A DNA stretch of 64,000 bases from a virus. The stretch lies in IMG/VR virus record IMGVR_UViG_3300025133_000032. One strand, given 5' to 3'. Positions 10,491-61,013 of the stretch are shown here, piece by piece (position 1 is the first letter of the stretch; each line of letters begins with the position of its first letter). Both the position numbers and the translations under genes were made by a program. The notes under the pieces were generated by a model. It worked only from the letters and a program-made list of their open reading frames with translations. It searched no databases and was not told the origin of the DNA.

Positions 10491-11120
10491 ATGAAACCGC
10501 TTAATGAATTTATTAGTTACGTGTTAAGTGAGCGCAAGAGAACCTTTACATTTAATGCCTTCAGACATTTGACTGATCTTGGTGAGATGCTGCGTTATCT
10601 TGATGCCACCTTACGAATGCAGCAAGCAGGTGTAGGGTCATCCAGGAGAGCATACAGAATTAATAGCAGAAAGGTTATAAAAATAGCTATGAACTCTCAG
10701 GGAATCGCGCAAAACAAAGCAGAGATAGAAACATACACAGACCCAGAAGCGAAACCACTCATGGCAAAAATCTTTGATTATCATGATAAATTTTTGTGGC
10801 TGGAAGTTGAGCACTTGCAAAAAGTTGACAATAAAACATTTAAGATGGATACTGGCATTTACTTTTATGATTTTTGTGACTGCATTTCTGGCGTGCTTTT
10901 AGATAATGAGCCAATTGAGAGTGTTATCGGTGACATAGATGATAAAAGAGCCATTAAGCTGATAAAAGATACTATTGGGTTTGCCAGATCAACCGGTACT
11001 GTTGTTAATGATCTATTGGCCGGAGAGCAATGGGGTAAGACTGCAGACGGGCGCTACGTAGTTCTGGATTATGGGTTTAATAAAGAAGTAGCGCATTTAT
11101 ACGGCTTCACGCAGTTCTAG
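10491..11120 (+). CDS. Protein-kinase-like protein with N-terminal leader
   Basis: GVGSSR Gly loop, VIKIA lysine, QNKAE, DLLAGEQWG catalytic-loop variant and VLDYG. Start placed at 10491, behind ATAATTAT. Confidence 0.7.
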   Translation: MKPLNEFISYVLSERKRTFTFNAFRHLTDLGEMLRYLDATLRMQQAGVGSSRRAYRINSRKVIKIAMNSQGIAQNKAEIETYTDPEAKPLMAKIFDYHDKFLWLEVEHLQKVDNKTFKMDTGIYFYDFCDCISGVLLDNEPIESVIGDIDDKRAIKLIKDTIGFARSTGTVVNDLLAGEQWGKTADGRYVVLDYGFNKEVAHLYGFTQF

Positions 11121-12527
11121 CTATTTAGCAACCCAAACTTGAGGGCCACCGACACATTTGCCTCTGTTTATAATGGTGCCCTGACAAACGCACACAGCTT
11201 CCAATGGCTCACCTTTTAAGGGAGCATTATTTACAATTCGTGAGCCAACCAAAGATGATGCACATGATTTTCCAACTCTAATTTTGCCCCAACATTTTTC
11301 TATTGTAGCATTGGGCTTACTTTCGTAAATACACCCTTGCATCCCAACCCAAGCTCGATTAGGTGTCAACTTTGTTCCATGGCTCGTTTGTGATCTATGT
11401 GTTGTCATAGACAGATCAGAACCTGACAATTGACCAACACGCCAGCCGAAGACTCCAAACTCTGGTTTCCATCCCATATCAACAAGCTGCCTGCCACTAC
11501 TGAATGCGAATGGGGTATCTCTATGTAATCCGAGCAGACCCGTTCCATCTGCATATCGTATACTACCTTTAAGATGATGACCACGAAGTTGTACGACGGA
11601 ATCATCACCTGCATTTTGTATATTACCTCCGATGACAGTAATATTACCACCAAGAAATGAACCGACTGCTGATCCTTCTTGGTATGGGTTAATGATAGCA
11701 GATGGTGCATTGTTATTGCCAACGCTGATTATATACGACGGAAACTCTTTTTTTGTCTTTGTATTCCACACATATGCAACTTGTGGAGAGATAATCGTAT
11801 TGCCCAAAAAGCTCTGTTCTTTCCATCCCCAGCAATCTGTTACAGCTTTTTCGCAAACGTTACTGATATCGACATGTTCAAAGTGACCAGCATTTGCATC
11901 AGCACCACGGACATACAATCCCCATGATGCCATATTACGAATTTGTACTGAGGAGAGATAGACACCATTGGCATTGCCTTGTGGGTATGTTGCCTCAATT
12001 CTGAGGCCCATACTATACCATCTTATCTCGACATCGCGTAACGCGATTCTTGCAGACGCAGTAATGCCTGTTGCACCTTGTGATTTAGAAGTTCCCCATA
12101 CCGACAGCTTTTCTAGTGTTGCATCGCCCTTAAACCCTCTAGGCATTGGGCTTGCACACGCAGGATCGGTTTCTTTTCCACCAGCACATACACGAGTCGT
12201 GATACCTCTATCTATCTCAAGAATACTGCAGCTTGTGCCGCACCCAATGATGTAATGCCCTCTATAAAGAATAAGTTCTTGTAATCTGTATACGTTATTT
12301 CCAAGCTTTATTTCGCCGACCCTGTATAGATCTCTACGAGATGATGAGGGTTCTATAGAGCGGAATGCACGATCAAAAACATCATCCCAATATTCACCAG
12401 AGTTTGGGCATTGCTTTACTACAGAGCCATCATCTTTTTTAATAGAATTACAAAAATTTTCTACTTCAACAGCAAAAGCTGGAGCAGAAAATAACATCAT
12501 TATAAGCAGGAACAAGACATTCTTCAT
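11121..12527 (-). CDS. Secreted Cys-rich pectate-lyase-like beta-helix protein
   Basis: Sec signal peptide MKNVLFLLIMMLFSAPAFA; beta-helix-like periodicity; many Cys residues. Confidence 0.6.
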   Translation of the reverse strand: MKNVLFLLIMMLFSAPAFAVEVENFCNSIKKDDGSVVKQCPNSGEYWDDVFDRAFRSIEPSSSRRDLYRVGEIKLGNNVYRLQELILYRGHYIIGCGTSCSILEIDRGITTRVCAGGKETDPACASPMPRGFKGDATLEKLSVWGTSKSQGATGITASARIALRDVEIRWYSMGLRIEATYPQGNANGVYLSSVQIRNMASWGLYVRGADANAGHFEHVDISNVCEKAVTDCWGWKEQSFLGNTIISPQVAYVWNTKTKKEFPSYIISVGNNNAPSAIINPYQEGSAVGSFLGGNITVIGGNIQNAGDDSVVQLRGHHLKGSIRYADGTGLLGLHRDTPFAFSSGRQLVDMGWKPEFGVFGWRVGQLSGSDLSMTTHRSQTSHGTKLTPNRAWVGMQGCIYESKPNATIEKCWGKIRVGKSCASSLVGSRIVNNAPLKGEPLEAVCVCQGTIINRGKCVGGPQVWVAK

Positions 12528-12552
12528 GCAAATAAATATGAAGAATGTCTTG
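12513..12552 (-). promoter_or_regulatory. 15-bp perfect inverted repeat covering the start codon of the beta-helix gene
   Basis: caagacattcttcat-N10-atgaagaatgtcttg; the ATG at 12527 lies in the stem and ATATTTAT overlaps the loop. Confidence 0.7.
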
Positions 12553-12567
12553 CTTTATTAAGAATTA

Positions 12568-16455: not shown

Positions 16456-18090
16456 TTATGTATACTCGACAACAAGGTTTGGGCACCCATAAATTTTGAC
16501 AACACCATTAGCAGCAGCAACATCTTTTTCACTTATTCCATTTGTTGCTCTGAACTTGAATCTGTCATATCTATTAGTAAAGTCTGTCCACCAAAATCGT
16601 GGTTTTGTTTTTGCTACTATTTTATAACCTGCAGCTTTATACCCTTTCCCATTTCCGTATCTCAAATCAATATACGAGATTAACCCTACTTTTCCGTCAT
16701 TAGTAGATATTTTAAATGCACATTTTGTAAGTCTTGATAAACCTCCAACGACTGTGCAATCTTTCTTAACAGCAAACCGAGCGACTTCATAAAATTTATC
16801 ATATTTTTTGTGAAAAGCACTTCGCAAAGAAATCGCAGCCATTAATTTATCTTTATGAAATAAACCAAATGCATATTTTGCCCTTACATCTCCATCAATA
16901 TGATTATTATCAAAAAAAGCTCTGCGCTCTTTTAATTTAATTTGCTTAATATTACATTCTCTAGCCCCAATTTTAGTTGCAGACAATCCAAGTTTATACT
17001 TTAGCATACTTTCAACTATATGTCTTTTGTTCTTCCATTCATCTTCAAAAATGTGTATAAGCTGCACACCCGCAGTATTACATATGTCTGTTTTTTTCAT
17101 TGCATAATCATAATTTAAAAATCTTTCTGAGTGCCAAAATAAACCGTCGTATTCTATAGCAAGTTTTTTACCAATTAAAATGTCAACTTCTTTTGGTTTA
17201 ATTAAAGTTCTATCAGATAACGTGACATTATTTTCAAAAGATTTTATGAATTCATATAAATCAAGCTGGCCCTTCGATTCTTTTGGATTGCAATTATGAC
17301 AAACTGGTGTTGTCTCTATCGTACCTAGTGTCTTAAAGCTTGAAACATTGCAGTTTAAACATTTAAACTCAAGTTTCGTAGTGTATTTACCTCTATATAC
17401 TTCTGGTGAAGTTATTAGCTCAAATCCATGCAGTCTAGATGTACGTTGAACTAATTCTGATATCTTCATTCGGCGGCCAGCTTCTCTATGAACATACCGA
17501 TCAGAGATTTTTTTACTCATTGCTAAAACTTTCGGATCAGAAGATTTTACAAGCCCTTTATTCCACGAAGTAAGAACACCCTCCGCGTATAATCTCTTCT
17601 TTGTCTCAGATATCTTTTTTGCTGATGCTTTAGCCTTGACTGGATCTTTAATTCTCCAGTCTAGTATCTCGCCCGCCTCGGCTTTTTTTGTGTATGTTTC
17701 ACTCGTCTTCTTTGCTGACTTAAACACCCTTTCATCAGTATTCTTAGTTAAACCGTCATTCCAAACTTTATATTTTCCGTCTTTATAACCTTGCGCTCTT
17801 TTGGCTATCATTTTTGCTTGTACAGTTTTATCAGCAAAACAAGAATCAATTCTTGCATTGTGTCCACGCACGTACTTTGAAAGATAACCCTTTTTCCACC
17901 CTGCCCACTTAATCGGCTCTGAGCATTCTGAAGAACATTGACAAGTTGGAACTATCCCATCTAAATACAGATCGACATATTTTGATTCGTAATCAGAAAT
18001 TTCATGATCTGTATTTAGGTGGACAAGAAACCTTTTCTCTTGTTTATATTGTTTTGAGCAAATATAACAAACTATAGCTTTTTGTACCAT
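16456..18090 (-). CDS. Hef-like free-standing endonuclease (Zn finger, PD-(D/E)xK/Vsr-like domain, GNAT-like C-terminus)
   Basis: C2H2 N-terminus, WNKG repeats, EVDILIGKKLAIEYDGLFWH, IHIFEDEW, then YEVARFA...VGGLSRL...SYIDLRYG. Confidence 0.75.
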   Translation of the reverse strand: MVQKAIVCYICSKQYKQEKRFLVHLNTDHEISDYESKYVDLYLDGIVPTCQCSSECSEPIKWAGWKKGYLSKYVRGHNARIDSCFADKTVQAKMIAKRAQGYKDGKYKVWNDGLTKNTDERVFKSAKKTSETYTKKAEAGEILDWRIKDPVKAKASAKKISETKKRLYAEGVLTSWNKGLVKSSDPKVLAMSKKISDRYVHREAGRRMKISELVQRTSRLHGFELITSPEVYRGKYTTKLEFKCLNCNVSSFKTLGTIETTPVCHNCNPKESKGQLDLYEFIKSFENNVTLSDRTLIKPKEVDILIGKKLAIEYDGLFWHSERFLNYDYAMKKTDICNTAGVQLIHIFEDEWKNKRHIVESMLKYKLGLSATKIGARECNIKQIKLKERRAFFDNNHIDGDVRAKYAFGLFHKDKLMAAISLRSAFHKKYDKFYEVARFAVKKDCTVVGGLSRLTKCAFKISTNDGKVGLISYIDLRYGNGKGYKAAGYKIVAKTKPRFWWTDFTNRYDRFKFRATNGISEKDVAAANGVVKIYGCPNLVVEYT

Positions 18091-18768: not shown

Positions 18769-19023
18769 ATGACGTCACTTCGTGTTTGCTTATTGGAAAC
18801 TCCAGAAATCTCTATCAAACATCTCATGCATCTGGACACTGGAGTGTTTATACATTATGCTATTTCATTCCCCAAAACAGAAGGCTTTTATGTCTACAAA
18901 ATCTCACCTTATATTTCTAAAAAAATAGAGACAGCGTATAGAAGACATAAATCAATCGGCAAAAAAGCTGTAGCAATTAAGAAAAATGCTCAGGGTGAAC
19001 CTTTTAAAGTTAAATCACTTTAA
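18769..19023 (+). CDS. Hypothetical protein (84 aa)
   Basis: ATG at 18769 lies 4 nt after ATATTTAT. The track's TTG start at 18721 is less likely. Confidence 0.5.
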   Translation: MTSLRVCLLETPEISIKHLMHLDTGVFIHYAISFPKTEGFYVYKISPYISKKIETAYRRHKSIGKKAVAIKKNAQGEPFKVKSL

Positions 19024-19131
19024 ATCTACAATAGTAGCTTCCGTTAGAAGCTGCGAAATAAAGTTCCGAAGAGTACCCGCAGCAAGCTGGTTTGAAATGG
19101 CGGCGCGGACATCTTTGACCCTAACAAGCAT
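19015..19131 (-). pseudogene. 38-aa N-terminal remnant of the WCTA/repeat paralog family
   Basis: MLVRVKDVRAAISNQLAAGTLRNFISQLLTEATIVDLK* aligns with the N-termini at 30492, 58887 and 61013. Confidence 0.75.
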
Positions 19132-19145: not shown

Positions 19146-19547
19146 TTAAGCGTTGACGCCAGATAATCTTTCTCTTGGCTTTTGTGGTACTTTTTTACCC
19201 TGCACGATTGGAATAACTTTTCCCTCACTTTCTTGTTTTTGTAATACAGCTAATAGTTTTCTAGATGACCATTCCAGATCGCTGTGTCTTTTTCCCCTAC
19301 CTTTAAGCACGACTGTATTTACATCATACTGGCGTATAAACTTTCTCCAATCATCCCGCTTCCATTTCTTTGAATCATCAACAAGCCCGATTCCATGGAC
19401 GGGATCAATAATACGCTGGACACCAGTTTCATCAAAAACTACATGGACTGTATCATGTGATTTAGGAGCTGGGGCATCTTGCGTCATGGCACGCATGTCC
19501 ATAGCTTCGCTTATTAAAGACCTTAATTGGCTAAATTTAATTTTCAT
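19146..19547 (-). CDS. Putative internal head protein (leader MKIKFSQLRSLISE)
   Basis: Shared N-terminal leader motif. Confidence 0.55.
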   Translation of the reverse strand: MKIKFSQLRSLISEAMDMRAMTQDAPAPKSHDTVHVVFDETGVQRIIDPVHGIGLVDDSKKWKRDDWRKFIRQYDVNTVVLKGRGKRHSDLEWSSRKLLAVLQKQESEGKVIPIVQGKKVPQKPRERLSGVNA

Positions 19548-20455
19548 TTGTTATCACCCAGGCGGTTATTTTTGATTATCTCTTGTGCCATCTCGAGGTG
19601 TCTTTGGACCTCAACTCTGCGAGCCATTGGGACAAGCCCTACAAGCTTTTTTACACGTTCTAACTCAGTTTCGATAGATCTCATTTTCCGTATAGCATTA
19701 CCATCAGGTTTCTTTGGTGTTAGATAGTCTTCATTCATCTCACGAATTAATGTTTTAAGTTCACCATAAGTAATTTTTGCCACAGACTCACTTTTAAGTG
19801 ACGGTACAGCGGATAATATTTTCGCGACATCACTCATCATATTTTTATCTAATGCAACCATGAGCACTTTTTTCAATGTTTTCTTATATCTAGGATCTGA
19901 TTTCGCTTTTGCAATTAAAGGCGGAATAATCTTTCGCAACTCTGCATGAGGTAAGTCGCCCCATGTCGGTTCTTTCATACTTCTTGCTTTATCTGACAAA
20001 GCAACATCACCACGAGCTGAGGGTCGCCCGGTCATCTGCACGTCATTCGCAACAGCATGAACTGAAGCGCCAGGGTTATCTGGACCGCTGGCAGTTCTAT
20101 ACCTTTGTGCTCCAGTTTGGATCTCTTTCCCACGTTGCGCAGGAGACATCCAGACTAACTCTTTCTGTTGAGCATGATGCAAGTTACCGTACTCCCACCA
20201 GTCAAGAGGCTTTGGTTTGCGAAGTTGCCCAAAAACAAGTTTCTCAGGGACGTTTGTCCAGATTTTTGTAGGCCTATTTGAATCATAAACAAACAGCAGG
20301 AACATCCCATGTGTTTGAAATGTTCCATGATTAACATCATCGCCCAGTCGCCCGTAAGCAATTGCCTTCAGCCGTTTAACTTCCTCATGCGGAATATTAC
20401 TTGTCGTTCCAGCTTCATTTATTATGTGTTTAATTTCACCGATGGTCAATTTCAT
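19544..20455 (-). CDS. Putative internal head protein (leader MKLTIGEIKHIINE, internal copy KITYGELKTLIREMNE)
   Basis: Leader motif present twice. Confidence 0.55.
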   Translation of the reverse strand: MKLTIGEIKHIINEAGTTSNIPHEEVKRLKAIAYGRLGDDVNHGTFQTHGMFLLFVYDSNRPTKIWTNVPEKLVFGQLRKPKPLDWWEYGNLHHAQQKELVWMSPAQRGKEIQTGAQRYRTASGPDNPGASVHAVANDVQMTGRPSARGDVALSDKARSMKEPTWGDLPHAELRKIIPPLIAKAKSDPRYKKTLKKVLMVALDKNMMSDVAKILSAVPSLKSESVAKITYGELKTLIREMNEDYLTPKKPDGNAIRKMRSIETELERVKKLVGLVPMARRVEVQRHLEMAQEIIKNNRLGDNK

Positions 20456-20590: not shown

Positions 20591-23500
20591 TTATGCATCT
20601 GAGCCGGCATTTGACACGACGAAGTCAACGCTAATGACTTCAGCAACTCTTGTGGGTTCGACGAATATCTTACCCCTGATAGTGTTATTTTCAATATCAG
20701 CCTGAGTTGTTGTTGTAGTATCAATTATAACTTTGAAACGTGCTACACCTTGTTGCTCTTGAATTCTCTGTAAGACAGGGTTAACAAGACTAGAGAACCG
20801 GTTTAGTGTTGATTCTCTATTAGGCTCAAAAATAATTTGATTTGAAATTGAACGTACTTGACGTCTGATTTCAATCATAAGTCTTCTGACATTTACTCTA
20901 TCAACTGCAGATTGTGCAGCATGCAAAGTTTTTTGCCCAAATACAACAACCCCATCACTCCCAGGGAATGAAACAAGCGGGTTGATACTAGCGTCTTGTA
21001 GTGTATCCATATTAGAACGATTCAATAATAACGAAGCATTATCCGTAGTTTGAAGTGCTCCTCTAACGAATCCTGCTGGAGCATTCCATGGGAATCCTAC
21101 AGAGTCATTCAAAGAGAATGCTCCCAATACTGCAACAGACGGCGGTACTTGCGTTGGCAAATTCGTGAATGGGTTATTAATAACCACATCTGGGAAATAT
21201 GCTGCAGCAAAGCTGCTATCCAAACCTCGGCCGTTAAACTGCGTCGCAGTATTTGTGACATGAACGTTTTGCACAGATGCTGTAACAACGGCATTGATTT
21301 CATCACGCTCTTCTACATCCATGATATACAGAGCATCGAATCTATCATTTTCGACTGTATCAACACCAGCATCGGATACGACTGAATGTCTAATTCCGGG
21401 AATCGCAAGAAGCTTGATATCGACGTCAGTCGTATCACCCATTATCTGCAGTCCCTTTCTATACGACTTCACAGTTGAACCGTTATTTAGATGTCTTGCT
21501 GAATCATCCATTTCTTGCTTCACAGCAATATTGGTTAGCTCATTAGACTCTTTATCGAATATATTCGTTCCATCATAACCACCCTGGACAAAGAAGTTGA
21601 ACTTAGCGATCGTTCTAACAGTTAAATCTCCGAAGTCTGTAGCAACGCTTAACGCTCTCGTCTTGTTCGCAGCATTGGCGCTGATTTGACCATTTCTTAC
21701 ATACGACATGCTTGCAAGTTCTTTTGCATCAACTATACCGTTCGATGCTGTTCTAACCTGGATTCTGTCTAGTGAGAAAATGTTATTATTATATAAATCA
21801 CTATCTAAAACAGTTCCATTAGAGTTAGCAACACCTGCGTTTTCCCCGACCTGGACATTTCTCAATGATGTCTGGAAATTTGGGAAATACTTAGTCAAAC
21901 TTCTGATTGTCTTATTCTCAACTTTCGATGAGTTAGGCTCCGTAAGTGATGTTTTTTGTGTAAACTGGACTCCCCAATAAAGTGACTTATTGACAATGAC
22001 CTTTGGATCAATTCCTTGTGCAATATTATCTCTAAATGGGATTGGTAATTCGACGACCCTCTTTAAGCCTTCGTTGCCATAGTCAGTCAAGCCTGCAGAA
22101 GCAGCAGTAGAACCACTAATTGCCGTTAGAGGATCAGAGCCTGAGGTTATTAAGTGTGCAGGCCCTCTAAAGCCAATGGGTAATGATGTAGGGCTTATCT
22201 CTTCGTCGTCAACCCTTTGATCAATCGCAACCCTAATTAGATTTGAAACATTAGGATATTTGCCTTCAACAACAAGCTTTTGGCCAGATGAATTTTTGTC
22301 AAAATCATAATATGCATTCAAATCGCCAATCCGGCGCCCGATATAGTTTTGTGATGTAGGATCAAGGTTAAGCCCGGAAAAGCTTTCCAAGATTACACGG
22401 TTCTCATCAGTATCACCGAACCTTCTTACAAGAAGGTCAAACGTACCGAATTGGTCATCATTAACGTTTGACTTTGCAATATTCTGAATTGATATCTTAT
22501 ATTTCTCGTTAGACTCGCGGCCATCCGACAGCATAAAGACTCTAAACAGATTTATTGGGTTTCCACCAAACTTTTGTGAAATTACTGTAGGCGATGAAGG
22601 AGTCGAATACCTATCTTCAAAGTTTTCGTAATTTGGTGCTGTAGTTGCGCCAGTATTTCTAGGTGCAGAGCCTGTAAGCAAAAATGCTACTGGCTCTTTT
22701 GATGCAGCCGAAGCAGCATAGTTACCAGCAGCGATGACTCCAGTACCCGTTACTGCAGCATATGATGGATGAATATCATAGTGTGAGTAAAGATAATGGC
22801 CAGCAACCTCAATCTTCGTAGGGTCTTGGTTTAATACATTACCGAGGTAATTAGGTGCAGTCTGATCAAACGATGCTGTTATAACATTCGGATATGATGC
22901 ATCATTTCCCTTATGACCATTAAGCAATAATACAAAGTTTTGATTTCCGCCTAATAAATCAACAGAGCCCGTCATAGCCCCATTTGGTCCTGCAGACGTT
23001 GCGACCTGCGCGACAGCAGGGGCTCCAGATGGAGACACTGAGGATGAAAGCATTGGTACAACACCAGATGCTGCCATCACTATACCCCTAACAATCGGGA
23101 CTGCGACAGCAACAGTTGCAGTTCTGTGTGCAATACCTGCATCAGAGAAAATGGATGAACCATTTGACTCAGACATGTATGTTCCCAAAATGTGCATTCT
23201 GCCTTTTGGACCAGTGCTATTTGCGTATGCGTTATCACCGAGGTTACCATTAGCTCCCGGAATCTGTTGCCCGACAACAAACCCAGCACCTTCTACGCTA
23301 CCAAGATTATTTCCAGTTGTAAGCCTCTTTTCTCCGCGACCTGCGCCAAGAACTCTTAAGAAGGTTACAGCCCGAGCATTACGTAACCATTCAGCTACAG
23401 CAATCGGCCCGAACTTTGTTCCATCAGAACCGCCGAATTTAACAACGAAATCCGGAAGTGATCCAACAGTAACTGGAACGAACGCAGGACCACGCTCTGC

Positions 23501-35909: not shown

Positions 35910-35942
35910 TACACTATTACCTCAAATGGGGTAGACATTATT

Positions 35943-37101: not shown

Positions 37102-37110
37102 TATAGACAC
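36814..37110 (-). CDS. Small paralog array member
   Basis: IQPLEKEFPIGSLISPVSCRRLWL; true start may be 37101. Confidence 0.7.
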   Translation of the reverse strand: MSIMDNCIQPLEKEFPIGSLISPVSCRRLWLPGSAGSYTAPALDFVEDTIAVVLGFEQYSAAYHGMVIYYKGACYITAAYGNEMFKELFIVIAGYHNG

Positions 37111-44545: not shown

Positions 44546-44839
44546 CTATTGGCTCTTTTTTAAAGAGCGTGCTTCGTTAATTCTTTTACGGCGAACCTTC
44601 ATTGATTCACGGAGCGTTTTAAGCATGCGAACCAACTTTGCTTCTTTAACCTTTTGTGCCTTCAACTGGTCAAGATCTTTTTCAAGAACCTTCTTAGTTC
44701 CATGCTCATCGGCGTCGACTTCTTTAGTCTTCTTAGCTATCTTTGATACATCTTCGATTGCAGCTTCGCGTAAGCTCTTGCTCTCTTGTTGAATTAGTCT
44801 CTTCAGCACATTTACTGATAATTTATGAACTTTTGGCAT
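44546..44839 (-). CDS. Putative prohead core/internal protein
   Basis: KLSVNVLKRLIQQE leader; ATATTTAT upstream. Confidence 0.6.
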   Translation of the reverse strand: MPKVHKLSVNVLKRLIQQESKSLREAAIEDVSKIAKKTKEVDADEHGTKKVLEKDLDQLKAQKVKEAKLVRMLKTLRESMKVRRKRINEARSLKKSQ

Positions 44840-46996: not shown

Positions 46997-49900
46997 TTAT
47001 GAATCAGACTCGTTTTCGAAATCACTTAAGTCAATTTCGAAAATCGGATCGTTAATTACAATGTCATCTACATTAAGATACTCTGTTAACATTTCCCGTG
47101 GCATTTTCATTTCTTTCTTAATACTATCTATATGCTTGCCAAGTGAAGTTAAAATAACTCTCATTTCATATGACATATTTGATGTCTTATTTTCTGCAAG
47201 AAGCAAAGAGTCATCGTTTAAAATTGCATCAGAGAGTGAACCACTAAATGGACTACCACGAAAAAACTTTAAATCGTTAGGATCACCATCAGGCTTTACT
47301 ATAGAACTAAAATCTGGCATGTGCGTTTTTGTGGGACCGTGTGTTCTGCGACGCTTCCTATTATAACCATATCTCGATAGTTGATCAGATTGCTTCACAG
47401 ACTTTTTGCGCTTCCTAGGTTTATCATCATCTTCACTTCCATCATCCATTAGCGCTTGGTGAAGTGAGATATCCTCATCGTCGTTTGGATCATCATCAGA
47501 AACGATTAATCTCTTTCCGTGATCTTCGCCTGCGAATAAGTCTTCTTCTCCAGCGCCAGAATCTCCGCTATCGTCGTCAATGTCAAGGTCTTCGCCACCG
47601 CCCCCGTCATCACCCGCTAGACCATCTGGAAGATCGCCGTCGCCGTCTTCACCTTCATATCCGCCACCGAGCCCGCCGCCGCCAAGAGCGCCGCCACCCC
47701 CTCCGCCCATGGGTGAATTATCCTCAAGTTCTTCTGACTCAAGTTTTAAGTCAAGCACTCTATCTTTGAATCTGCCCTTCTCAATCAGCTCAATCTCGTC
47801 ATCTGATAAGCTTAATACTTCTTTTTGGATATATGATCTGTCAAGAAGGCCTTCTGGAATTGAACCTGCAATTTCGAATTTAGTTCTAAATAACTCTAAT
47901 TTTTGTTGCTGGGCGACCGTAGAGGGGTTCGATAGCATTAGCGAAAAATCTGATAGATCTTCGCCCTCATATCCATGTGTATATAGATGGATTTGAGCTA
48001 TCTTCTCCAATTCTGAAATTAGGACGCGTTGAATCTTACTAATTGTTCTACTAAACCTGATGTCTTCCTGTGCAAGTGTTGCCTTACTGGATAAACTCTC
48101 GTCATACCCCAAATATGCTTTGGGAACTTTTAGAGCAGAAAACAGCTTTCTTTGAATGTACTCTACATCAGCGATGTCAGATACGTGTTGTCCACCAGCC
48201 AAAGTATCAATCTTCGTTCCAGTTTCGCCACCACGAACAGGGATGAAGTAATCTTCGTCCACAGACAATGGGTTATACCTAAGATCAACCCTACCCGATG
48301 ATTTATCGACGACTTGAGACCTTTTTAGCTTAGTTTGGGCGGCTTCCATGTAGTTAGGAATATCCTCAGTAGGTACCGTTCCGACATCAATGTAAAAAAC
48401 ACGCCTTTCTGGTGATCTGACAACCCTATAAACAAGCATTGCATCTTCAATAAGGATTAATTGCCGCCAAATCCTTCTTGCACTTTCTAAGACGGACGAC
48501 CCATATGGCAAGAAGGCATCATTACCGACCATTCTGAAATGTGATACCTGCCAGGCGTCAAGTATTTGGTTACCTTGTGTAACCCACCTAAATCTTACAG
48601 CAAGGGGCTCTTCTGGATCATACCCTTCCTCACGCTCGACTTCATTTACAGGCATGGGAAACACATTGACTACACCAAGCTCAGGGTGTACATCATTGAA
48701 TAAGAACATATCACCATATTTGCAAAGATTTCTAGTCCAGGCTGTCAGGTTATGGTCAACATTAATAATATCAAGAAATAACTCATCAAGAAGCTGCTTT
48801 ATTTTAGGGTTCTCAGAAAAAATGTGGAGTGATGAATCCTTCTCATTTACGGCAGTCGTTTCCTCAGAAAAGATGTCAAGTGCACTACAAATCTCAGGTG
48901 TATTATGCGAAATGACCGTATCAGTGGCGAAATTCTTATACCCGTCAACAGTCAAGTCATACAGGGGAATTTCTCCATAATACTCTACAGAAACAACTTT
49001 ATGATTTGCGTAATTTTCTCTAAAATCAGTAAAGTTTTTGTAACCGTTGTTTTTTAGCCTGTTTTTAACTTTAGCAGCCGTTGTATCTAGTTTTTCACAA
49101 AGAAGTGACAACTGCATGCCATCTTCGTATGTGTCACAAACAGACTGGAATGTTAACGATGAATCGTAGCGTGGGTTTTTACTTCCCTTATTATCCCATG
49201 AGTTATTTTTCCACCCAGGTGAGTAGGCTGCAGCAAACGTTTCGAAATTCTTAAAACCATTTTTTCGCAATCTTCGCTTGATTACGTTCGGGTCAGTATC
49301 AAGCTTGCTGCATAAAGAATAAAGATTAAACTCAGAATTTTCGCATATTTCTAAAATTTTTCCGAAAGTGATGTCTCGTCTTTCAGCAGGATTATTCTCC
49401 TTCATAAATTTAGAATGATTAGCTTTAAATTTGTTTATCCACTCTTGATTATCAGGTGACCACTTGTGCCCATTTAAAATCTTACGATGGTAGCGATTAT
49501 GTTCGTCTGCCGTCATTATCTGTAGATTTTCTGGGTTATTATCAAATTTCGTGAAATTCTTATGATGAACAACTTCGCCCTCTTTAAGTTGTCTGTTTGA
49601 TGCCCACTCTGCTACTACTTTATGTTCACGCTGCCAACCATTCGCGATAGTATATATAAATCTATAATCGGTACCAGAATCTGTGCCTTTCCCTTCGCCA
49701 TACCATGATTTACGATAAAATGGCATCATCGAATCGCCGGCACTTAAACCGTCAATTCTACAAAACGTACCGTCACGTTTCATTAATCTATGATTTGCTG
49801 TCCCTATTATTTCCTTGCCACTATTAAATGTAACTTTCCAAGCATGATCAAATCTTGTCTGTCTAGCATGTTTTCCGAGAGCCGGTACGATACTTTTTTT

Positions 49901-51397
49901 CTCATGATCGTAAGCATAGACATAAAAAGTATCATCAGCGCTATACTCTTCAGATAATTGTTTTATCGTTTTATACCCATCTAGTGTAGCTATCTGTGTA
50001 TCGCCCGCCAAACAATATTCCATTTCAGCGAAATCTGCGTACCGTGAGTTATGGCAAACTATTGAATTTGTTGCAAAATTCTCATGCCCGTCGACAGTCA
50101 TATCGTAAACCGGAATTTTTTTCCAAGGAGTAACAGAGACAACTTTATGATTTCTAAAATTATCTTTCTTAAATTGCTTCCATTTTAAATCTTTTTTATC
50201 AAGAAATCGTGTAAGTGTTGCGCCGCTAATATTTAGTTGATCTGATATTTTTAAGACTGTTGGTTTATCGATTCTCTTTCCAGTTTCAACTATTAAATCA
50301 ATTGTTAATTTAGCAGTTTCACTTTTTCTTGATCGGCCTTTCCAGTATTCTGCAAAATTTCTTGAAGATTTTATTCTACCCTCAGCCCATGCGTGCTTTA
50401 TTGTTTTTGAATGTTTATTTTTATTTTCTTCTACTTTATACCAATCGCTACGTGTTTTCGCACCCTTTGCAACACTCTCAGGATTATGCGATGGATTATT
50501 ATTTAACCAATGATTTCGGCGCATTTCACGAATTTTTGGTTGGCGATTAACATTAGCGACACCGGCTCGTCGAGAGCCATCATCTTCATCCCAAGCTTGC
50601 TGGATCCCTGCAATCATTTTTTCGCGATGGTCGATCCATTGTTGCTTTGTATCTTGGGCATGTAACTTTAGGTGCTCTTTAGCATCCATAATTAACAAGT
50701 TGTCTGGAGTGTTATTCTCAGAATCATAATCAATATGATGAATATGTTCCTCGCCTTTCTTTACTTTTCTTTTTGTGCTCCACTCTGCAATTAATTTATG
50801 CTCAGATATCCACCCATTCCAACCAGATGGATCCATTGTATAAATGTTTTTATAACCGGTGAATTGTTTACCATCTTTTGATGTTCCATTAAACTGCTTA
50901 CGATAGAAAGGCATCATTGAGTCACCAGCTTTTAAACTGCCAGCGTCTTGATACTCCCCGCTACGTGTCATACAAGGATGATCAGGCGTACATATAAGCT
51001 CTGTGTCATCGTCAAATTTAATTTTTACAGTGTCTTTTATACCTGACTGTCTTGGATGATGCGCGTAAGCTGGAACTATCTGTTTTTTCTCATGATCATA
51101 TGAATAAACAATAAACTTTTCATCTTTAGGATATCGCTTAGCTAATTCTGCAATCGACACAAATCCCTCTTTTCCAGGAACTGGTATAAGTGTATGTCCC
51201 GCTAGACACTGTCGATCATATTGCCCATATGCATTTAATGCATTACTATATACTTGGCTGTATGATTTTTTAAATGCGGTTACCGCACTCGTTGCAGTTG
51301 GTTGTCTAAAAGAACGAACTTTTTTCTTTAATACCGGGCCGCCACGAAAAAGTTGCGTTAGCCTTTTGAATAAATCATCTCGTCGATTTTCTGCCAT
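46997..51397 (-). CDS. Portal protein (T4 gp20-like) containing two inteins
   Basis: RNLCKYGD, IEDAMLVYRVVRSPERRVFYIDVG, EDYFIPVRG and TLAGG motifs; about 708 aa after splicing. Confidence 0.93.
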   Translation of the reverse strand: MAENRRDDLFKRLTQLFRGGPVLKKKVRSFRQPTATSAVTAFKKSYSQVYSNALNAYGQYDRQCLAGHTLIPVPGKEGFVSIAELAKRYPKDEKFIVYSYDHEKKQIVPAYAHHPRQSGIKDTVKIKFDDDTELICTPDHPCMTRSGEYQDAGSLKAGDSMMPFYRKQFNGTSKDGKQFTGYKNIYTMDPSGWNGWISEHKLIAEWSTKRKVKKGEEHIHHIDYDSENNTPDNLLIMDAKEHLKLHAQDTKQQWIDHREKMIAGIQQAWDEDDGSRRAGVANVNRQPKIREMRRNHWLNNNPSHNPESVAKGAKTRSDWYKVEENKNKHSKTIKHAWAEGRIKSSRNFAEYWKGRSRKSETAKLTIDLIVETGKRIDKPTVLKISDQLNISGATLTRFLDKKDLKWKQFKKDNFRNHKVVSVTPWKKIPVYDMTVDGHENFATNSIVCHNSRYADFAEMEYCLAGDTQIATLDGYKTIKQLSEEYSADDTFYVYAYDHEKKSIVPALGKHARQTRFDHAWKVTFNSGKEIIGTANHRLMKRDGTFCRIDGLSAGDSMMPFYRKSWYGEGKGTDSGTDYRFIYTIANGWQREHKVVAEWASNRQLKEGEVVHHKNFTKFDNNPENLQIMTADEHNRYHRKILNGHKWSPDNQEWINKFKANHSKFMKENNPAERRDITFGKILEICENSEFNLYSLCSKLDTDPNVIKRRLRKNGFKNFETFAAAYSPGWKNNSWDNKGSKNPRYDSSLTFQSVCDTYEDGMQLSLLCEKLDTTAAKVKNRLKNNGYKNFTDFRENYANHKVVSVEYYGEIPLYDLTVDGYKNFATDTVISHNTPEICSALDIFSEETTAVNEKDSSLHIFSENPKIKQLLDELFLDIINVDHNLTAWTRNLCKYGDMFLFNDVHPELGVVNVFPMPVNEVEREEGYDPEEPLAVRFRWVTQGNQILDAWQVSHFRMVGNDAFLPYGSSVLESARRIWRQLILIEDAMLVYRVVRSPERRVFYIDVGTVPTEDIPNYMEAAQTKLKRSQVVDKSSGRVDLRYNPLSVDEDYFIPVRGGETGTKIDTLAGGQHVSDIADVEYIQRKLFSALKVPKAYLGYDESLSSKATLAQEDIRFSRTISKIQRVLISELEKIAQIHLYTHGYEGEDLSDFSLMLSNPSTVAQQQKLELFRTKFEIAGSIPEGLLDRSYIQKEVLSLSDDEIELIEKGRFKDRVLDLKLESEELEDNSPMGGGGGGALGGGGLGGGYEGEDGDGDLPDGLAGDDGGGGEDLDIDDDSGDSGAGEEDLFAGEDHGKRLIVSDDDPNDDEDISLHQALMDDGSEDDDKPRKRKKSVKQSDQLSRYGYNRKRRRTHGPTKTHMPDFSSIVKPDGDPNDLKFFRGSPFSGSLSDAILNDDSLLLAENKTSNMSYEMRVILTSLGKHIDSIKKEMKMPREMLTEYLNVDDIVINDPIFEIDLSDFENESDS
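48902..50014 (-). mobile_element. Intein 2 in portal (371 aa, HNH endonuclease)
   Basis: Starts CLAGDT; block B GTANHR; VVHHKNFTKFDNNPENL; ends LYDLTVDGYKNFATDTVISHN/T. Confidence 0.9.
50048..51208 (-). mobile_element. Intein 1 in portal (387 aa, HNH endonuclease)
   Basis: Starts CLAGHT; block B CTPDHP; HIHHIDYDSENNTPDNL; ends VYDMTVDGHENFATNSIVCHN/S. Confidence 0.9.
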
Positions 51398-51447: not shown

Positions 51448-53076
51448 TCAAAACAGCCAATCCATATTAGCAGCGGGGTTTGTGTTCTTTTTCCGCTTTT
51501 TGTTCGCTTCGATACCAGTCCCACCAGCGTATGGTACCATCCCTGTCCAGGAAGGTAGTACTTCATTACCATTATTGCTTAAATTTTCGAAATCATTGTG
51601 TGACATACCAAACCCGCCCAACATAGCAGAATTTAGTTTCGTTGCAAAGTGGCTATGTGTTCCAGACACATCAAATAAATATAGTCCAATAGCTAAAGCC
51701 ATCACTAAGTCGTCATTGCAACTTTTTTGTGCCTGGGGTTTGCGACCCTTCATAATGAATGTTTTGAACTCATCATATAATCGCGAAGAATACGTTTTGA
51801 ACACCCTATTGCGGATAACTTCTTCCAACTTTGTTAAAACATTCTCTCGTGACCCTTTTTGCATGTCAAACCCAGCATTCGAAACTGAATTTGGTTGCAC
51901 ATAGTCACCTACAGGTGCGTGTTTTTTGTTTTCGTAGTATATATTCGTGTACCCAATATAATCTATTAGATGGATTAGAACATGGTTACCGTATGTGTTC
52001 TTCTCTGGTGCAATCAGCGCGTTATTATATTTTATTGCATACTCAGCAAGCAGATTTGCGAACTTATCTGGTCTTATTTTGCCGCGATATTCTGCAACTT
52101 GCTCTGCCAATGTTGTATTGATAACATGAAAAGTAGAATAGTCATTACTATCACCACGTCCGACGTCTGCGGAGATAATATACTTGACGTCATCGTCGAT
52201 TATCGGCTCTTTCCAGACCCAAACATTTCTTTCTGGCCCTTCACGCCTAATAGGGTCAATGATATTTTGGCTTACCCATTCTATATCACTAGCCTCTAAG
52301 TATGTATCACCAGAAGCACCAAAGTCGCACAAAAGTTCTTGAGCGACGCCTTTTTTTGACAGTTTTGTACATTCGTTCTCAAACCATGCTTGATCACGTT
52401 CTGGGTGTACGTCCCAAGGCAGCAAAATTGGGAAGAATTCGCTTGTTCCGTCTTGTGCATCCTTCCATAACGTGTGAAACTGGTTACCAACACCCTTTGG
52501 GGTCGAAATAATTATAGCCCGACCACCCGTTGATAATGTAGAGTTCAAACCCGTCCATAATTCATCAAAATTGTTGATATGGGCTGCTTCGTCAATGATC
52601 AACAAAGATAGAGCTTCTGATCGACCAGCATCGGGAGCAGTCGGGATAGCTTCAACTCTTGAATTCGAGGGCGCACCAAAAATAAGTGATTGCTTATTAT
52701 CTTCAACGATCTTAGGTAAAACAAGCCACTTAGGGAGGCTATTAACGACATGTTTTACTTTACGGATCAATCCCATTGCCGTCTTTAACTTCGTAGCCAT
52801 CACCAATACTTCTTTATTTCTGTGAAATATTAGTAACCAAGCAGCATATGCAGTGGCGAGAGTCGTTAGACCAAGCTGGCGTGATTTATTTACGATCACA
52901 TACCTATTAGAAACGAATGCTTTAAGACAGTCATCCTGAAATGGAAATGTCTTGAATATGACTGGTCCTTTTACTGGGTGAGGAATTTTTGCGTAAGTAT
53001 TAAGGAAATAATGCGGATCTCTTGCGCACCGACGGATTTCATCAGTTTGCATCTTTTTACTTACTGATAATGACAT
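51448..53076 (-). CDS. terL: Terminase large subunit (T4 gp17-like)
   Basis: KSRQLGLTT (Walker A), LIIDEAAH (Walker B), ISTPKG, ISADVGRG and NDDLVMALA. Confidence 0.95.
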   Translation of the reverse strand: MSLSVSKKMQTDEIRRCARDPHYFLNTYAKIPHPVKGPVIFKTFPFQDDCLKAFVSNRYVIVNKSRQLGLTTLATAYAAWLLIFHRNKEVLVMATKLKTAMGLIRKVKHVVNSLPKWLVLPKIVEDNKQSLIFGAPSNSRVEAIPTAPDAGRSEALSLLIIDEAAHINNFDELWTGLNSTLSTGGRAIIISTPKGVGNQFHTLWKDAQDGTSEFFPILLPWDVHPERDQAWFENECTKLSKKGVAQELLCDFGASGDTYLEASDIEWVSQNIIDPIRREGPERNVWVWKEPIIDDDVKYIISADVGRGDSNDYSTFHVINTTLAEQVAEYRGKIRPDKFANLLAEYAIKYNNALIAPEKNTYGNHVLIHLIDYIGYTNIYYENKKHAPVGDYVQPNSVSNAGFDMQKGSRENVLTKLEEVIRNRVFKTYSSRLYDEFKTFIMKGRKPQAQKSCNDDLVMALAIGLYLFDVSGTHSHFATKLNSAMLGGFGMSHNDFENLSNNGNEVLPSWTGMVPYAGGTGIEANKKRKKNTNPAANMDWLF

Positions 53077-57170: not shown

Positions 57171-57267
57171 AGCTTATCCCCATGTATATCAAGAGCAAAT
57201 TCTTGTTTAATCATATATGATTATACATGTATATGGTAAATAGTGTTAATCAGGTAACAGACTCCAG

Positions 57268-58887
57268 TCAGGCACGTGAGGCGGCCCACTTGACATCTAT
57301 GTCTTCATCTTTCAAAAGTGCGAACAGAACATCATCTGGTGTGTTTTTATTGAGTCCTACACATGTCTTAACTGAACTATTGGGATCTTTCGCAAGTACC
57401 CTTAATATATCAGGTGATATATTGGGGTTATTCGCTAAACCCCACCTAACTCCTGCGGCTTTATCTTTTATAAGAGCTTTTAAGACATCACCCGGCGTGC
57501 GGTGGTTCATCGCCACCGCACGCCGGACATTTGCACCTGGGTCTTTTGAAAGTTCTCTTAAAGTCTCAGGGGGCATATTATTGGACGCAGCATTTTGCCT
57601 TGTCTGGTGATCGTTATCTTTTGCAAGCTCTTCCAGGGAGTCGGGAGGTGTATTTGGGTTTGATGCTATACCACGTTTAGTCTGTTTATCTTTACTTTTC
57701 ACAAGTTCTCTCAAAGTATCAACTGGTATATTTGGGTTAAGTAATGTATTGTACCGTGTAGTTTCATCAGGATCTTTCGCAAGCTCTTTTAAGGAATCAA
57801 CTGGTGTATTTGGGTTTGATGCTGCGCAATGCCTAACCGTTGCATCTTTATCTTTTGCAAGTTCTCTCAAAGTATCAACGTGTACGCTTGTATTATAAGC
57901 TACATCTTGTCGAATGCGGACATCTTTGCTTTTTGACATTTTTGAATAGTGGTGGTTATTTAAAACAATAATATAATCTTGAACGTCTTTTGTTGGCTTT
58001 AAGCCAGCAATATTCTTGAATTGATTTGTAGTTGCGACGAATGCGGGTGGTCTTAAGCCCTGAGCGAATTTTTTAAATCTTGGAACTGACGTTACTGCTT
58101 TCTTGATATCTCTTATTGCTGGGTGGACGTCATCGATTGCACGGCTCATTTCGATAGCCGCATGTATCTTGGGCCATTCATCACCAAAAGCTTCCTGGAA
58201 ATCAAACTGTTGATTATTTTGGTTAACAGTCATTTCATTCGGGTGTGATGGTTGTACCTCACCGCCGATTGTTCCGATTGACCACTTCTTATTTTCGTCA
58301 TGTTTATCAAGAACATAATAAAGTGATGTTGTACCTTCTAAAATATAGCTATAAAATAGATTCTCGCCCTTTGTTCTTGCAGTGCACCATGTTGTGCCCT
58401 TTCCGATTGCACAAGAAGCCTGGATGCTTCTTGGCATCAGAACAATAAAGTTGTCTGACTCATAAACTTTGTCAGCATCGCCAGATGCTGCCTTGAAGTC
58501 TATCTTAGAGTCATCAGGAAGCTCTTCAAGCTTCCTGTGTAAATCACCGGCCGTTCTATAACTATTAATGTCTGCGTCTTTTCCCTTTAGCTTCTGTCTG
58601 CTTTTGGCGCCATCAAAAGAAATAATGAGGGGCGAAATGTCTCTTAAAGGTTCTTGATTTGAACGTGAAACACGTTCAAGCCACATAAGATATTGTCTTA
58701 GTTTGGCTTGAGGTAGAGCTTGAAGTTTTTCTAAAACTTCATCCCACTCTTCTGGAGACCTGTTAGATTTTGCTTTGACATCATCAATCGCACCTTCTGA
58801 GAGTAATTGTCTGGCTAGGTCTTTTATGCGGGCCTCTACCAGCTGATTTGAAATTATTTCCCGGAGTTCTCTAATCGTGATGAGCAT
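57268..58887 (-). CDS. WCTA (PcfJ-like) domain plus 26-aa LRV/HEAT-like repeat protein, copy 2
   Basis: Leader, ASCAIGKGTTWCTA, about nine NPNTP..L.ELAKD....VR repeats. Confidence 0.8.
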   Translation of the reverse strand: MLITIRELREIISNQLVEARIKDLARQLLSEGAIDDVKAKSNRSPEEWDEVLEKLQALPQAKLRQYLMWLERVSRSNQEPLRDISPLIISFDGAKSRQKLKGKDADINSYRTAGDLHRKLEELPDDSKIDFKAASGDADKVYESDNFIVLMPRSIQASCAIGKGTTWCTARTKGENLFYSYILEGTTSLYYVLDKHDENKKWSIGTIGGEVQPSHPNEMTVNQNNQQFDFQEAFGDEWPKIHAAIEMSRAIDDVHPAIRDIKKAVTSVPRFKKFAQGLRPPAFVATTNQFKNIAGLKPTKDVQDYIIVLNNHHYSKMSKSKDVRIRQDVAYNTSVHVDTLRELAKDKDATVRHCAASNPNTPVDSLKELAKDPDETTRYNTLLNPNIPVDTLRELVKSKDKQTKRGIASNPNTPPDSLEELAKDNDHQTRQNAASNNMPPETLRELSKDPGANVRRAVAMNHRTPGDVLKALIKDKAAGVRWGLANNPNISPDILRVLAKDPNSSVKTCVGLNKNTPDDVLFALLKDEDIDVKWAASRA

Positions 58888-58916
58888 ATACGATAACTAT
58901 TGCACACACACACGAA

Positions 58917-59492
58917 TTATGCAGGATCACCCAGCCCTAGATTGCAAGCCTCAGCAATAACGTAAGCATCAACTTTATCCAAACAATATGGCTGAACTTT
59001 CTTATTCCTATTCAGCTCCCAAACTTCATGCTTAAAAACTGAGTTGGAAAGATATTCAAACGTCTGCTCTTTTTGATTCTTACCTCCAGCTTTCTTCTTT
59101 GATAGTAATGGAATACCAATTGCTTTACGTGCCGCTGTTGCGTCTATATAGATTGGGTCAATTAAAAACAGTTCACGTGCAAAATATGATACCATGATGT
59201 TAAATTTTGCAAGCAAAGCAATCGTGTTCGCAGATGACATACCACGTCTGAATTTCTTTACTGGATCTTCTATCGCTAGTTTCGTTATTGAGAAGTTGTA
59301 TAAATCAATGTCATACTTTAGAGCTTTTAATGATTCTTTCGTGATGTCAACTTTACCCCAGAAACCAGATTTAACTTTTCTAAGGTCGATATAACCCATT
59401 TTAGCCGGATACGATAGAAGCAGATTCGATTCTTCTAATATAGACCATCCGATTACGCTTGTGCTAACATCTAACGCCAGTATATAGCTCAT
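58917..59492 (-). CDS. RuvC-like Holliday junction resolvase
   Basis: ILALDVSTSVIGW, AIED and DKVDAYVIA acidic motifs. Confidence 0.8.
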   Translation of the reverse strand: MSYILALDVSTSVIGWSILEESNLLLSYPAKMGYIDLRKVKSGFWGKVDITKESLKALKYDIDLYNFSITKLAIEDPVKKFRRGMSSANTIALLAKFNIMVSYFARELFLIDPIYIDATAARKAIGIPLLSKKKAGGKNQKEQTFEYLSNSVFKHEVWELNRNKKVQPYCLDKVDAYVIAEACNLGLGDPA

Positions 59493-59549
59493 GCATAATA
59501 ATACACATAGGTTTGCTGGATGGTAAATTACCTGTGTATGTCTTTGCTG

Positions 59550-61013
59550 CTAATAATTATTGTCTGCAGCAAATTTCACAGAATCATTTTTATCTTTTCT
59601 AAGCATAACAACAATTTCATCTGGTGTCGAGAGATTTTCGGCGACGTTGCGCCTGACACCTGCGTTACTACTCTTTGCTAAAATTTCGTAAATGTCAAAT
59701 CCGAGGGCCGGTCGGCGTGATAGTGCGGAGGTAACAAATGGAATATCATTTGTCGCAAGTATCTTAAAAACTTCATGCGAAGCATTTTTATTATTTAAGA
59801 CAGCATACTGGATCGATTGGTTGGGACGTTTGGCAAGCATGGTGATTGTTTTCGGATCTGTAACAGTCATTGCAGCTTGAGCTAGAAGATCTTTATCATC
59901 GCCGTCTATAAATGTCATTAATACTTGCTCGGGTGTCGAAGGGTTACGAGCAACGCCGCGACGCACAAACCAGTTATCATCAGAAGCCAATGTAGCAAGA
60001 AGCTCTGGAGGTGTGCGAGAACTATGAGATGCTTCTTCTCGCACACCCTCATTTTCGCTTGTTGTCATCTTTGTTAAAGCCGGTATTATAATTTCGTTGG
60101 TATAATCACTAACTTCACCAGATAATTTATTACCTGCTGATTCTAATGAACTCAATAAAGCTAAAATTGCTGGGACTCGCATGCCTTTAACGAGCTTTTT
60201 AAATCTTGAGACTGACGTTACTGCTTTCTTGATATCTTTTATTGCTGGGTGCTCTTTTACTTTTTTTGAATGCAGTGTAATAGCATTTATAATGTCTTCT
60301 TCTTCTTCTTCGAACTCAAAACTAAAATCAAAATCATCGTTATCTTCGTCAACTGTTACAGAACCATACTCAGGCTCTTGTACTTCGCCATTGACTGCCC
60401 CAATTGACCACTTTCTTTTTTTATCATGCTTGTCAAGAACATAATAAAGAATGACGCCATCATTTATTATGTAATTGTAAAATAAGTTCTCACCTTTGGT
60501 CCTTGCTGTGCACCATGCCGTGCCGCGCCCAAGCGCGCACGAAGCATCAAGGCTTCGGGGCATCAAAACAACAAAATTGTCTGATTCATAAACTTTGTCA
60601 GCATCGCCAGATGCTGCCTTGAAATCTATCTTAGAATCATCAGGAAGCTCTTCAAGCTTCCGATGAAGATCCCCAGGGGTCTTATAGGCGTTAATATCTG
60701 TGTCTTTTCCCTTTAACTTCTGCCTGCTTTTAGCTTTGTCGAAAGAAATGATTAAAGGTGAAATATCTCTTAGGGGCTCTTGATTTGAACGTGAAACACG
60801 TTCAAGCCACGTGAGGTATTGTTTTAGTTTAGCTTGGGGGAGGATTTGAAGTTTCTCGAAAACTTCATCCCATTCTTCAGAATGTCTATCAGATCTTGCT
60901 TTAATGTCATCAATGGTGCCTTCTGTAAGAAGGCAATTTATTAGCTCTTTCAAGCTAGTTTCTACCAGCTGATTTGAAATTGCTTCCCGAAGTTCTCTAA
61001 TCGTGATGAGCAT
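59550..61013 (-). CDS. WCTA (PcfJ-like) domain plus LRV/HEAT-like repeat protein, copy 3
   Basis: Leader, ASCALGRGTAWCTA, C-terminal VRRGVARNPSTP-type repeats. Confidence 0.8.
   Translation of the reverse strand: MLITIRELREAISNQLVETSLKELINCLLTEGTIDDIKARSDRHSEEWDEVFEKLQILPQAKLKQYLTWLERVSRSNQEPLRDISPLIISFDKAKSRQKLKGKDTDINAYKTPGDLHRKLEELPDDSKIDFKAASGDADKVYESDNFVVLMPRSLDASCALGRGTAWCTARTKGENLFYNYIINDGVILYYVLDKHDKKRKWSIGAVNGEVQEPEYGSVTVDEDNDDFDFSFEFEEEEEDIINAITLHSKKVKEHPAIKDIKKAVTSVSRFKKLVKGMRVPAILALLSSLESAGNKLSGEVSDYTNEIIIPALTKMTTSENEGVREEASHSSRTPPELLATLASDDNWFVRRGVARNPSTPEQVLMTFIDGDDKDLLAQAAMTVTDPKTITMLAKRPNQSIQYAVLNNKNASHEVFKILATNDIPFVTSALSRRPALGFDIYEILAKSSNAGVRRNVAENLSTPDEIVVMLRKDKNDSVKFAADNNY

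Follow-up and report, generated by a model that had tools for sequence, protein, structure and literature searches.

A short N-terminal leader shared by unrelated proteins of uncultured T4-like jumbo phages and its resemblance to a capsid-targeting sequence

The viral DNA record IMGVR_UViG_3300025133_000032 (64,000 nucleotides, analysed over its whole length and called the window here) encodes a head module like that of phage T4. A preliminary description, made from the letters of the sequence, had proposed that about ten unrelated proteins of the window begin with a similar cleavable leader ending in [IL]-x-E, by which they are loaded into the prohead. We found that such a leader exists. It is a family of peptides of the MKITKRQLRRIIKEE type with 14-16 conserved residues, M-[KR]-[IL]-[TS]-x-x-x-L-[RK]-x-[LI]-[IV]-[KR]-E-[EA]-[LIV], which stands at Met1 of many proteins with unrelated bodies, is conserved at the level of the peptide, co-occurs with an S77 prohead protease and ends like the maturation site of the capsid protein. 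These properties suggest, with a probability that we put at roughly 65%, that the leader is an expanded, clade-specific equivalent of the T4 capsid-targeting sequence (CTS), through which the tagged proteins would be packaged and cleaved. It differs from what is established for T-even phages in that the consensus is a distinct and longer one, occurs throughout a large group of jumbo phages that are uncultured, and is found on dozens of genes per genome; a literature search for the leader string found no paper. Nearly all genes of the window lie on the minus strand, as do the window features given below unless the plus strand is named.

Every position of 63 window proteins (18,951 positions) was scored with a leave-one-out matrix, and the N-termini encoded from 19547, 20455, 45504 and 58887 each ranked top among the positions outside the training set and outside the paralogues of 58887. 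When a profile trained on 71 relatives only was run on the window proteins, these four starts scored 30.7, 25.0, 34.8 (the highest value) and 19.3 bits, respectively. The same profile recovered the starts at 30492 (17.4 bits) and 61013 (14.9 bits), the looser match four residues into the 44839 protein (16.6 bits) and an internal copy at residue 226 of the protein starting at 20455 (17.7 bits), and all window sites other than these eight were below 10 bits. The leader at 19131 was verified by its alignment to residues 1-38 of the 58887 and 61013 proteins (E 1e-6 to 1e-8). The tagged bodies at 19547, 20455, 45504 and 44839 and those of the 58887/61013 family were mutually unrelated by BLASTP, so the shared leader stands on five unrelated body families in the window rather than on about ten unrelated proteins, four of the originally listed open reading frames (ORFs) being one family of LRV repeat proteins.

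Two starts that had been listed with the others, 10491 and 18769, were not upheld. The protein starting at 10491 (protein H, 10491-11120, plus strand), described at first as a leader-tagged kinase, scored -0.5 bits on the window profile, ranked 114 in the leave-one-out test, was not in the top matches of the relatives' profile and had no relatives in a pattern scan of IMG/VR; it falls outside the leader family. The kinase assignment was not borne out either, with no Pfam family and no PDB relative at E below 0.1. The ESM Atlas clusters closest to it consist of hypothetical proteins of viruses, Phage_T7_kinase is carried by 17% of the members of one of them (score 0.95), and the protein contains G-x-x-S-S-R and VIKIA motifs, all of which are leads only. 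The methionine at 18769 (score -10.5) lies inside a doubtful plus-strand ORF, on the other strand from the leader genes, and was rejected as a non-gene.

The frequency of the motif was determined for positions 2-14, with Met excluded, in the six-frame ORFs of 42 related loci that had been obtained by scanning IMG/VR with the window protease. Matches occurred at 33 of 2,523 first methionines (1.3%), at 96 of 497,324 non-Met positions (0.019%) and at 25 of 506,209 positions of reversed sequence (0.005%), which is a 68-fold excess at the first Met over internal positions. A resemblance by chance or simple paralogy could draw on the kinship of the four LRV ORFs and on the commonness of [IL]-x-E by itself; it is rejected by the leave-one-out ranks, by the first-Met excess, by the 53 unrelated body families found in the relatives and by the at least 120 IMG/VR stretches that match a strict DNA pattern for the leader, and we give it practically no weight.

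The consensus of the 71 relatives reads M; K/R; I/L; T/S; x; x; x; L (93%); R/K (97%); x; L/I; I/V; K/R; E (84%); E/A; L/I/V, with conservation highest at L8, R/K9, I12 and E14 and not at the first codons. Among 86 leader proteins of the protease-defined relatives, position 12 was I/V/L in 84, position 13 was K/R in 56 and position 14 was E in 73, and 302 further leader proteins had I at position 12 in 288 cases and E at position 14 in 283. Across the protease-defined and wider sets, E14 is conserved at 85-94% and I/V/L at position 12 at 98%. Unrelated window genes spell the same leader residues with different codons (TTA, CTG or CTC for L8; AGG or CGG for R9), and because the codons differ between leaders, selection acts on the leader peptide. 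These data bear on the idea that what is shared is a 5' end kept at the gene level, as a translation-friendly start (ATG AAA ATT...) and as homology for recombination, with no common fate of the proteins. Such an origin would be in keeping with the leader-only stub (19015-19131), with a third LRV copy that is broken precisely where leader and body meet, with one genomic slot that holds unrelated bodies in different phages, and with identical or near-identical leaders on some adjoining array genes. The codon differences and the position of the conservation peaks argue against it, however, and recombination, which may spread the tag, leaves the protease-site-like end unexplained, making this idea very improbable in our judgement.

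The distribution of the leader was examined by searching whole records with a 22-sequence leader profile at stated E-value limits. At a limit of 10 there were 17 matches in the complete relative G001 (369 kb), 12 in G002 (340 kb) and 14 in the fragment G004 (184 kb), several of the last being LRV paralogues. At a limit of 1, LR756508.1 (484 kb) had 21 matches, 20 of which fell within the 140-245-kb stretch holding the terminase and capsid genes. Nearly all whole-record matches begin at position 1 of the model. By the same search the cultured phages Mel-JY01 (190 kb, one weak match at a limit of 10), immuto (160 kb, one match at a limit of 1) and XacN1 (385 kb, none at a limit of 1) were without the leader or nearly so, and T4 (169 kb) had no match at a limit of 10; T4, XacN1 and Mel-JY01 serve as negative controls for the profile.

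The strict DNA pattern, a degenerate rendering of MKI....LRR.I[KR]E (roughly 36 bits by our own estimate), matched the at least 120 IMG/VR stretches mentioned above, often repeatedly on the same strand over a few kb. In a wider sample of 80 loci taken from these stretches we found 331 leader ORFs, with up to 20 per locus, and several of the records are the closest relatives of the window, their capsid proteins being 63-67% identical. In three nearly complete relatives the leader genes number 29, 42 and 29; most of them stand in long arrays, and one adjoins the protease. An S77 protease was present in 16 of 29 leader-found records and in all four of those that are at least 90% complete; five checked records without the protease also had no gp23-type capsid gene and are for this reason regarded as fragments lacking the head module. 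In the related contigs L011 (16910-18421), L109, L147 and L129, small genes with the leader follow one another in tandem, 4 to 20 in a row, and the array of L011 includes a NUDIX hydrolase.

The prohead protease of the window (Peptidase_S77, 45508-46149) is of the T4 gp21 type (Pfam PF03420, E 1.2e-25; PDB 5JBL, E 4e-15). Its catalytic His (ELDHP) and Ser (GISSRG) motifs aligned with those of T4 gp21 (5JBL), and its N-terminal KLLQE|W parallels QLLIE|T of gp21. The major capsid protein (gp23 family, 39343-41271; Pfam Gp23, E 2.9e-75) has a predicted maturation site, V57-L58-R59-E60|V61, in the same alignment column as F-L-T-E|A of T4 gp23, suggesting that the capsid protein would be cleaved at E60. 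This column is [LIV]-[KRS]-E in 24 relatives, Mel-JY01 and immuto, and the site aligned with that of T4 reads V-L-[KR]-E. The capsid maturation site is the only substrate site that could be placed by homology, and the leader end has the same P4-P1 pattern (hydrophobic, I/V/L, K/R, E). The T4 protease gp21 cleaves behind L/I-x-E, and a tag made of the first 10 residues of IPIII is enough to have a protein packaged; within it, targeting depends on residues 4 and 7, whereas processing depends on residues 8 and 10 (PMC9026906).

The best-scoring leader of the window is that of protein D (203 aa, 44893-45504), which is encoded just downstream of the protease. Its leader MRLKRSQLKELVKE is followed by CLREIIKE and then by a low-complexity body. 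We found 19 homologues, also just downstream of the protease, that have the conserved N-terminus MKxxRxxLKALxKECLVEILxEGLG and further conserved motifs (FDPRLDTP, ILADTAxTTLP and WAxLAF) in the low-complexity body. Protein D may belong to the prohead core or be scaffold-like, and the cargo leaders may have it as their docking partner or template. In 19 relatives the gene directly after the protease is leader-tagged and the following gene is too, so that a tagged neighbour of the protease was seen in practically every relative. Protein I (97 aa, basic, 44546-44839) has a leader-like stretch, KLSVNVLKRLIQQE, that begins at residue 6, and its homologues in L002, L009, L036 and L040 start directly with the leader (MKLTxxxL[RK]xxVxEE) and have EVDADE in common, which validates the looser match reported earlier at 44839. 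Just upstream of the capsid gene, at the position of T4 gp22, lies the gene of a very acidic 666-aa protein (41300-43300) that is rich in [LI]-x-E and matched no Pfam family; judged by sequence and gene order only, it is probably the main scaffold.

The T4 internal proteins IPI, IPII, IPIII and Alt carry a CTS that is removed by the gp21 protease, and the internal proteins of T-even phages are diverse, with only the targeting sequence conserved (PMC9026906; PMC3012670). Like the T4 CTS, the leader described here is a short tag at Met1 with an M-K start and an [LI]-x-E end followed by A or E, and it is borne by unrelated bodies. As in T4, it is accompanied by an S77 protease and by the head-gene order portal, small core genes, protease, core proteins, scaffold and capsid. 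The two differ in the number of conserved residues (14-16 here, 10 in T4) and of tagged genes (29-42 in nearly complete relatives, about four in T4); unlike the T4 CTS, the clade tag is sometimes doubled or internal, and many of its bodies are acidic. Propeptides of head and ejection proteins in phiKZ, 201phi2-1 and SPN3US are likewise cut by gp21-like proteases (PMC10052503; PMC9026906). These too are jumbo phages, and their many head-internal proteins, their cleavage after the Glu of a three-residue motif and their paralogous cargo families recall what is proposed here. Their proteases prefer S/A/G at P3, however, and most of the propeptides are long, at 111-254 residues, and do not form one portable tag common to the cargo, whereas the clade tag has I/V/L at P3 and is short and uniform. 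Encapsulin cargo-loading peptides are also short and portable and direct diverse enzymes into an HK97-fold shell; they differ from the clade leader as interpreted here in being usually C-terminal and uncleaved and in binding the shell protein directly.

By analogy with these systems, the amphipathic basic helix of the leader would dock a tagged protein into the assembling prohead core, probably beside protein D, which has the same helix and adjoins the protease, or beside the acidic 666-aa putative scaffold. The S77 protease would then cut after E14 and, where such sites are present, after [LIV]-x-E at residues 18 and 22, or at residues 18 and 31 in the doubled LRV leader. The mature body would be retained in the head and would exit with the DNA at the next infection. 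A capsid-targeting role would explain jointly the Met1 position of the tag, its end in a protease motif, its presence on the candidate core protein next to the protease and its portability. The earlier proposal of a portable prohead-loading tag on effectors such as a kinase and repeat proteins is partly supported, by the S77 protease, the Met1 tag ending in [IV]-x-E, the match to the capsid site, the protease-adjacent carrier and the unrelated bodies, and has lost its kinase, the 10491 protein not being tagged.

Several observations weigh against this interpretation. The co-occurrence with S77 is confounded by phylogeny, every carrier being T4-like. Many of the 29-42 tagged genes of complete relatives stand in long arrays that are remote from the head module and close to the genome ends, a location that also fits early host-takeover genes. 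A TATAAT-like box upstream of the genes of the repeat proteins E and F and of protein B also precedes ClpP and other non-structural genes, and for this reason late expression cannot be deduced from it. In the wider set 83% of the bodies are acidic, unlike the basic T4 internal proteins. The leader end, first given as [IL]-x-E, is mostly [IV]-x-E at positions 12-14, but the LRV copies of the window have N, not E, at position 14 and L-V-E at 16-18 instead. The leader profile finds no match in the T4 genome and no detectable similarity to MKTYQEFIAE, which is encoded twice there as MKTYQEFIAE|A, at the starts of IPII and IPIII. Finally, packaging and cleavage in this clade rest on analogy.

Part of this evidence would suit a helix that serves as a shared docking or oligomerisation tag and either stays on the protein or directs it to a place other than the head (such as a phage hub protein, a chaperone or some target in the host), the tagged set being a family of early takeover proteins. 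Its sixteen conserved positions exceed the needs of a protease site, and the arrays in complete relatives consist of 20-27 small genes remote from the head genes; the acidity of most wider-set bodies and the upstream box that E, F and B have in common with non-structural genes point the same way. However, the best-conserved copy is on a gene of the protease operon, with another on the next gene, and the strongly conserved E14, with I/V at P3 and K/R at P2, is exactly as in the capsid maturation site. T4 moreover provides a precedent for targeting and cleavage determinants within one short peptide. We regard such a docking tag as unlikely.

The leader could also be an N-terminal degron for the phage ClpP (34999-35583; Pfam, E 3.3e-77) together with a host unfoldase, giving the tagged proteins a short, timed life. 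N-terminal degrons are known for Clp proteases, and ClpP is present in the window and in five of five relatives searched. Because it occurs in every relative searched, its co-occurrence is uninformative on a degron role, and these genomes also encode S77. On a conserved head-module protein a degron would be unexpected, and it would have no need to mimic the capsid maturation site, and no adaptor or unfoldase was detected in the window, leaving this explanation quite improbable.

Returning to the tagged proteins themselves, the ORFs at 58887, 61013, 30492 with 30235, and 19131 form one paralogous LRV family by BLASTP. It comprises protein E (LRV/HEAT repeats, 539 aa, 57268-58887), its paralogue protein F (LRV/HEAT repeats, 487 aa, 59550-61013, 49% identity), a broken third copy (28754-30492) made up of a leader ORF (30304-30492) and a body ORF (28754-30235), and the leader-only stub of 38 aa (19015-19131). 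Tandem 26-residue LRV repeats (Pfam PF01816) are present in the three longer copies (E 5.7e-31 for protein E, 9.6e-12, and 2.5e-22 for the body of the broken copy). The doubled leader that had been described for this family was confirmed: that of protein E consists of MLITIRELREIISN, QLVEARIKDLARQ and LLSEG, protein F has one as well, and comparison with the G004 homologues revealed an insert of about 12 residues in the window copies that repeats the leader unit. In an AlphaFold2 model of protein F, residues 2-40 form one low-confidence helix (block pLDDT 38, 50 and 58) apart from the folded parts, which include a helical domain (45-122) and a repeat solenoid (300-487) with pLDDT above 90; the middle domain has a pLDDT of 26-50. 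DNA alignment of the third copy showed that one nucleotide is missing directly behind LLTEA (about 30394/30395), a deletion that shifts the body to another frame, and tblastn with E and F found residues 1-38 in one frame and 33-533 in another. The TATAAT-like box also stands before this broken copy. The deletion at the leader/body junction and the leader-only stub look like scars of exchange or decay; the deletion may be an assembly error.

Protein B (303 aa, net charge +16, 19544-20455) is encoded between the sheath and tube genes and carries the leader MKLTIGEIKHIINE; its internal copy, KITYGELKTLIRE, spans residues 227-239 (about 19739-19777). Protein B had no homologue but itself among 5.8 billion proteins and no Pfam or PHROG family, and the ESM Atlas gave scores below 0.8 for it and a poor model. 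When proteins B and D were compared with 50,697 phage records by tblastn, no match was found. The start of protein A (133 aa, net charge +7, 19146-19547), which has the leader MKIKFSQLRSLISE, overlaps the stop of protein B by 4 nt, and the strong basicity of both proteins recalls the T4 internal proteins. In G001 the slot after a pair of sheath genes (243415-244564) holds two leader-tagged genes, as at 19146-20455, with bodies unrelated to B and A, so that the sheath-tube slot looks like a conserved cargo slot with replaceable content.

Sorted by their bodies, the 86 leader proteins of the protease-defined relatives made up 53 families; the median length was 137 aa. Most bodies are orphans, and the domains found were LRV/HEAT repeats, one NUDIX hydrolase and one Lar-like protein. 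The wider set added a CCA/poly(A) polymerase head domain, RNA-repair modules (HAD_SAK_1, AAA_33 and CPD), HD_4 and PAP2, as well as the peptidoglycan-active domains YkuD, LysM, GH19 and PG_binding_1. A non-hydrophobic tag on peptidoglycan-active enzymes would fit delivery from the virion. Only a few of the cargo bodies have recognisable domains, and an effector role of the cargo is putative.

The remainder of the head module consists of the large terminase (51448-53076), the portal (Portal_T4, 46997-51397), a 280-aa protein (46142-46984) and two small proteins (44012-44479 and 43379-44008). The portal gene is a 1466-aa ORF that includes two intein splicing domains and an HNH_3 endonuclease domain. 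The small protein at 43379-44008 has 209 aa, and it is its C-terminus, not its N-terminus, that has the sequence LLNKYIKVIFNEVF, leader-like in its hydrophobic/[I]-x-N-E pattern. The terminase is distant from those of the nearest cultured phages, Microcystis phage Mel-JY01 (42% identity) and Flavobacterium phage immuto (40%). A possible bS21 gene antisense to 44546-44839 was rejected, as the plus-strand ORF has no Pfam family and the S21 of Mel-JY01 matches nothing in the window.

Tail sheath, tail tube and baseplate genes lie within 9-27 kb of the window. The sheath region contains tandem sheath-like paralogues of about 1000 aa each (20591-23608 and 23646-26720), and this pair is also found in G001 (54% and 38% identity to the first). 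About seven small, seemingly paralogous ORFs of 88-118 aa stand in tandem at 35610-37750; they are without the leader and have an N-terminal motif such as LEKEFPIGSLISPVSCRRLW in common. A C2H2-like finger (C-x2-C ... H-x3-5-H) occurs in the first 30 residues of three otherwise different proteins (16456-18090, 33645-34262 and 37769-39211). The TATAAT-like box is found 4-10 nt before many start codons (for example, 61013, 30492, 20455, 35583, 34262, 33172 and 32925), without a Shine-Dalgarno sequence. This arrangement points to mRNAs that are leaderless, or nearly so, in many genes, which belong to several functional classes.

Should the tag prove to act in the proposed way, it would be a sequence key that lists the head-carried, DNA-delivered proteins of an uncultured jumbo phage group, first-strike proteins that are otherwise invisible in metagenomes. 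Their number would go from a handful in T4 to dozens here, with very fast turnover, as for protein B with its lack of any relative among the sequences searched. We tentatively extend this to a possibility that we hold at somewhat below even odds, namely that the leader is the address label of modular cassettes, so that about a tenth of the genes (29-42 per genome) of these 280-370-kb phages are head-packaged and injected, with bodies swapped at the leader/body junction. The cargo would then include RNA-repair, NUDIX, (p)ppGpp-type HD, anti-restriction-like and peptidoglycan-active enzymes, and the whole injected arsenal of an uncultured phage would be readable from its sequence. The tag could also become a new loading peptide for foreign proteins in large capsids, as the T4 tag already is.

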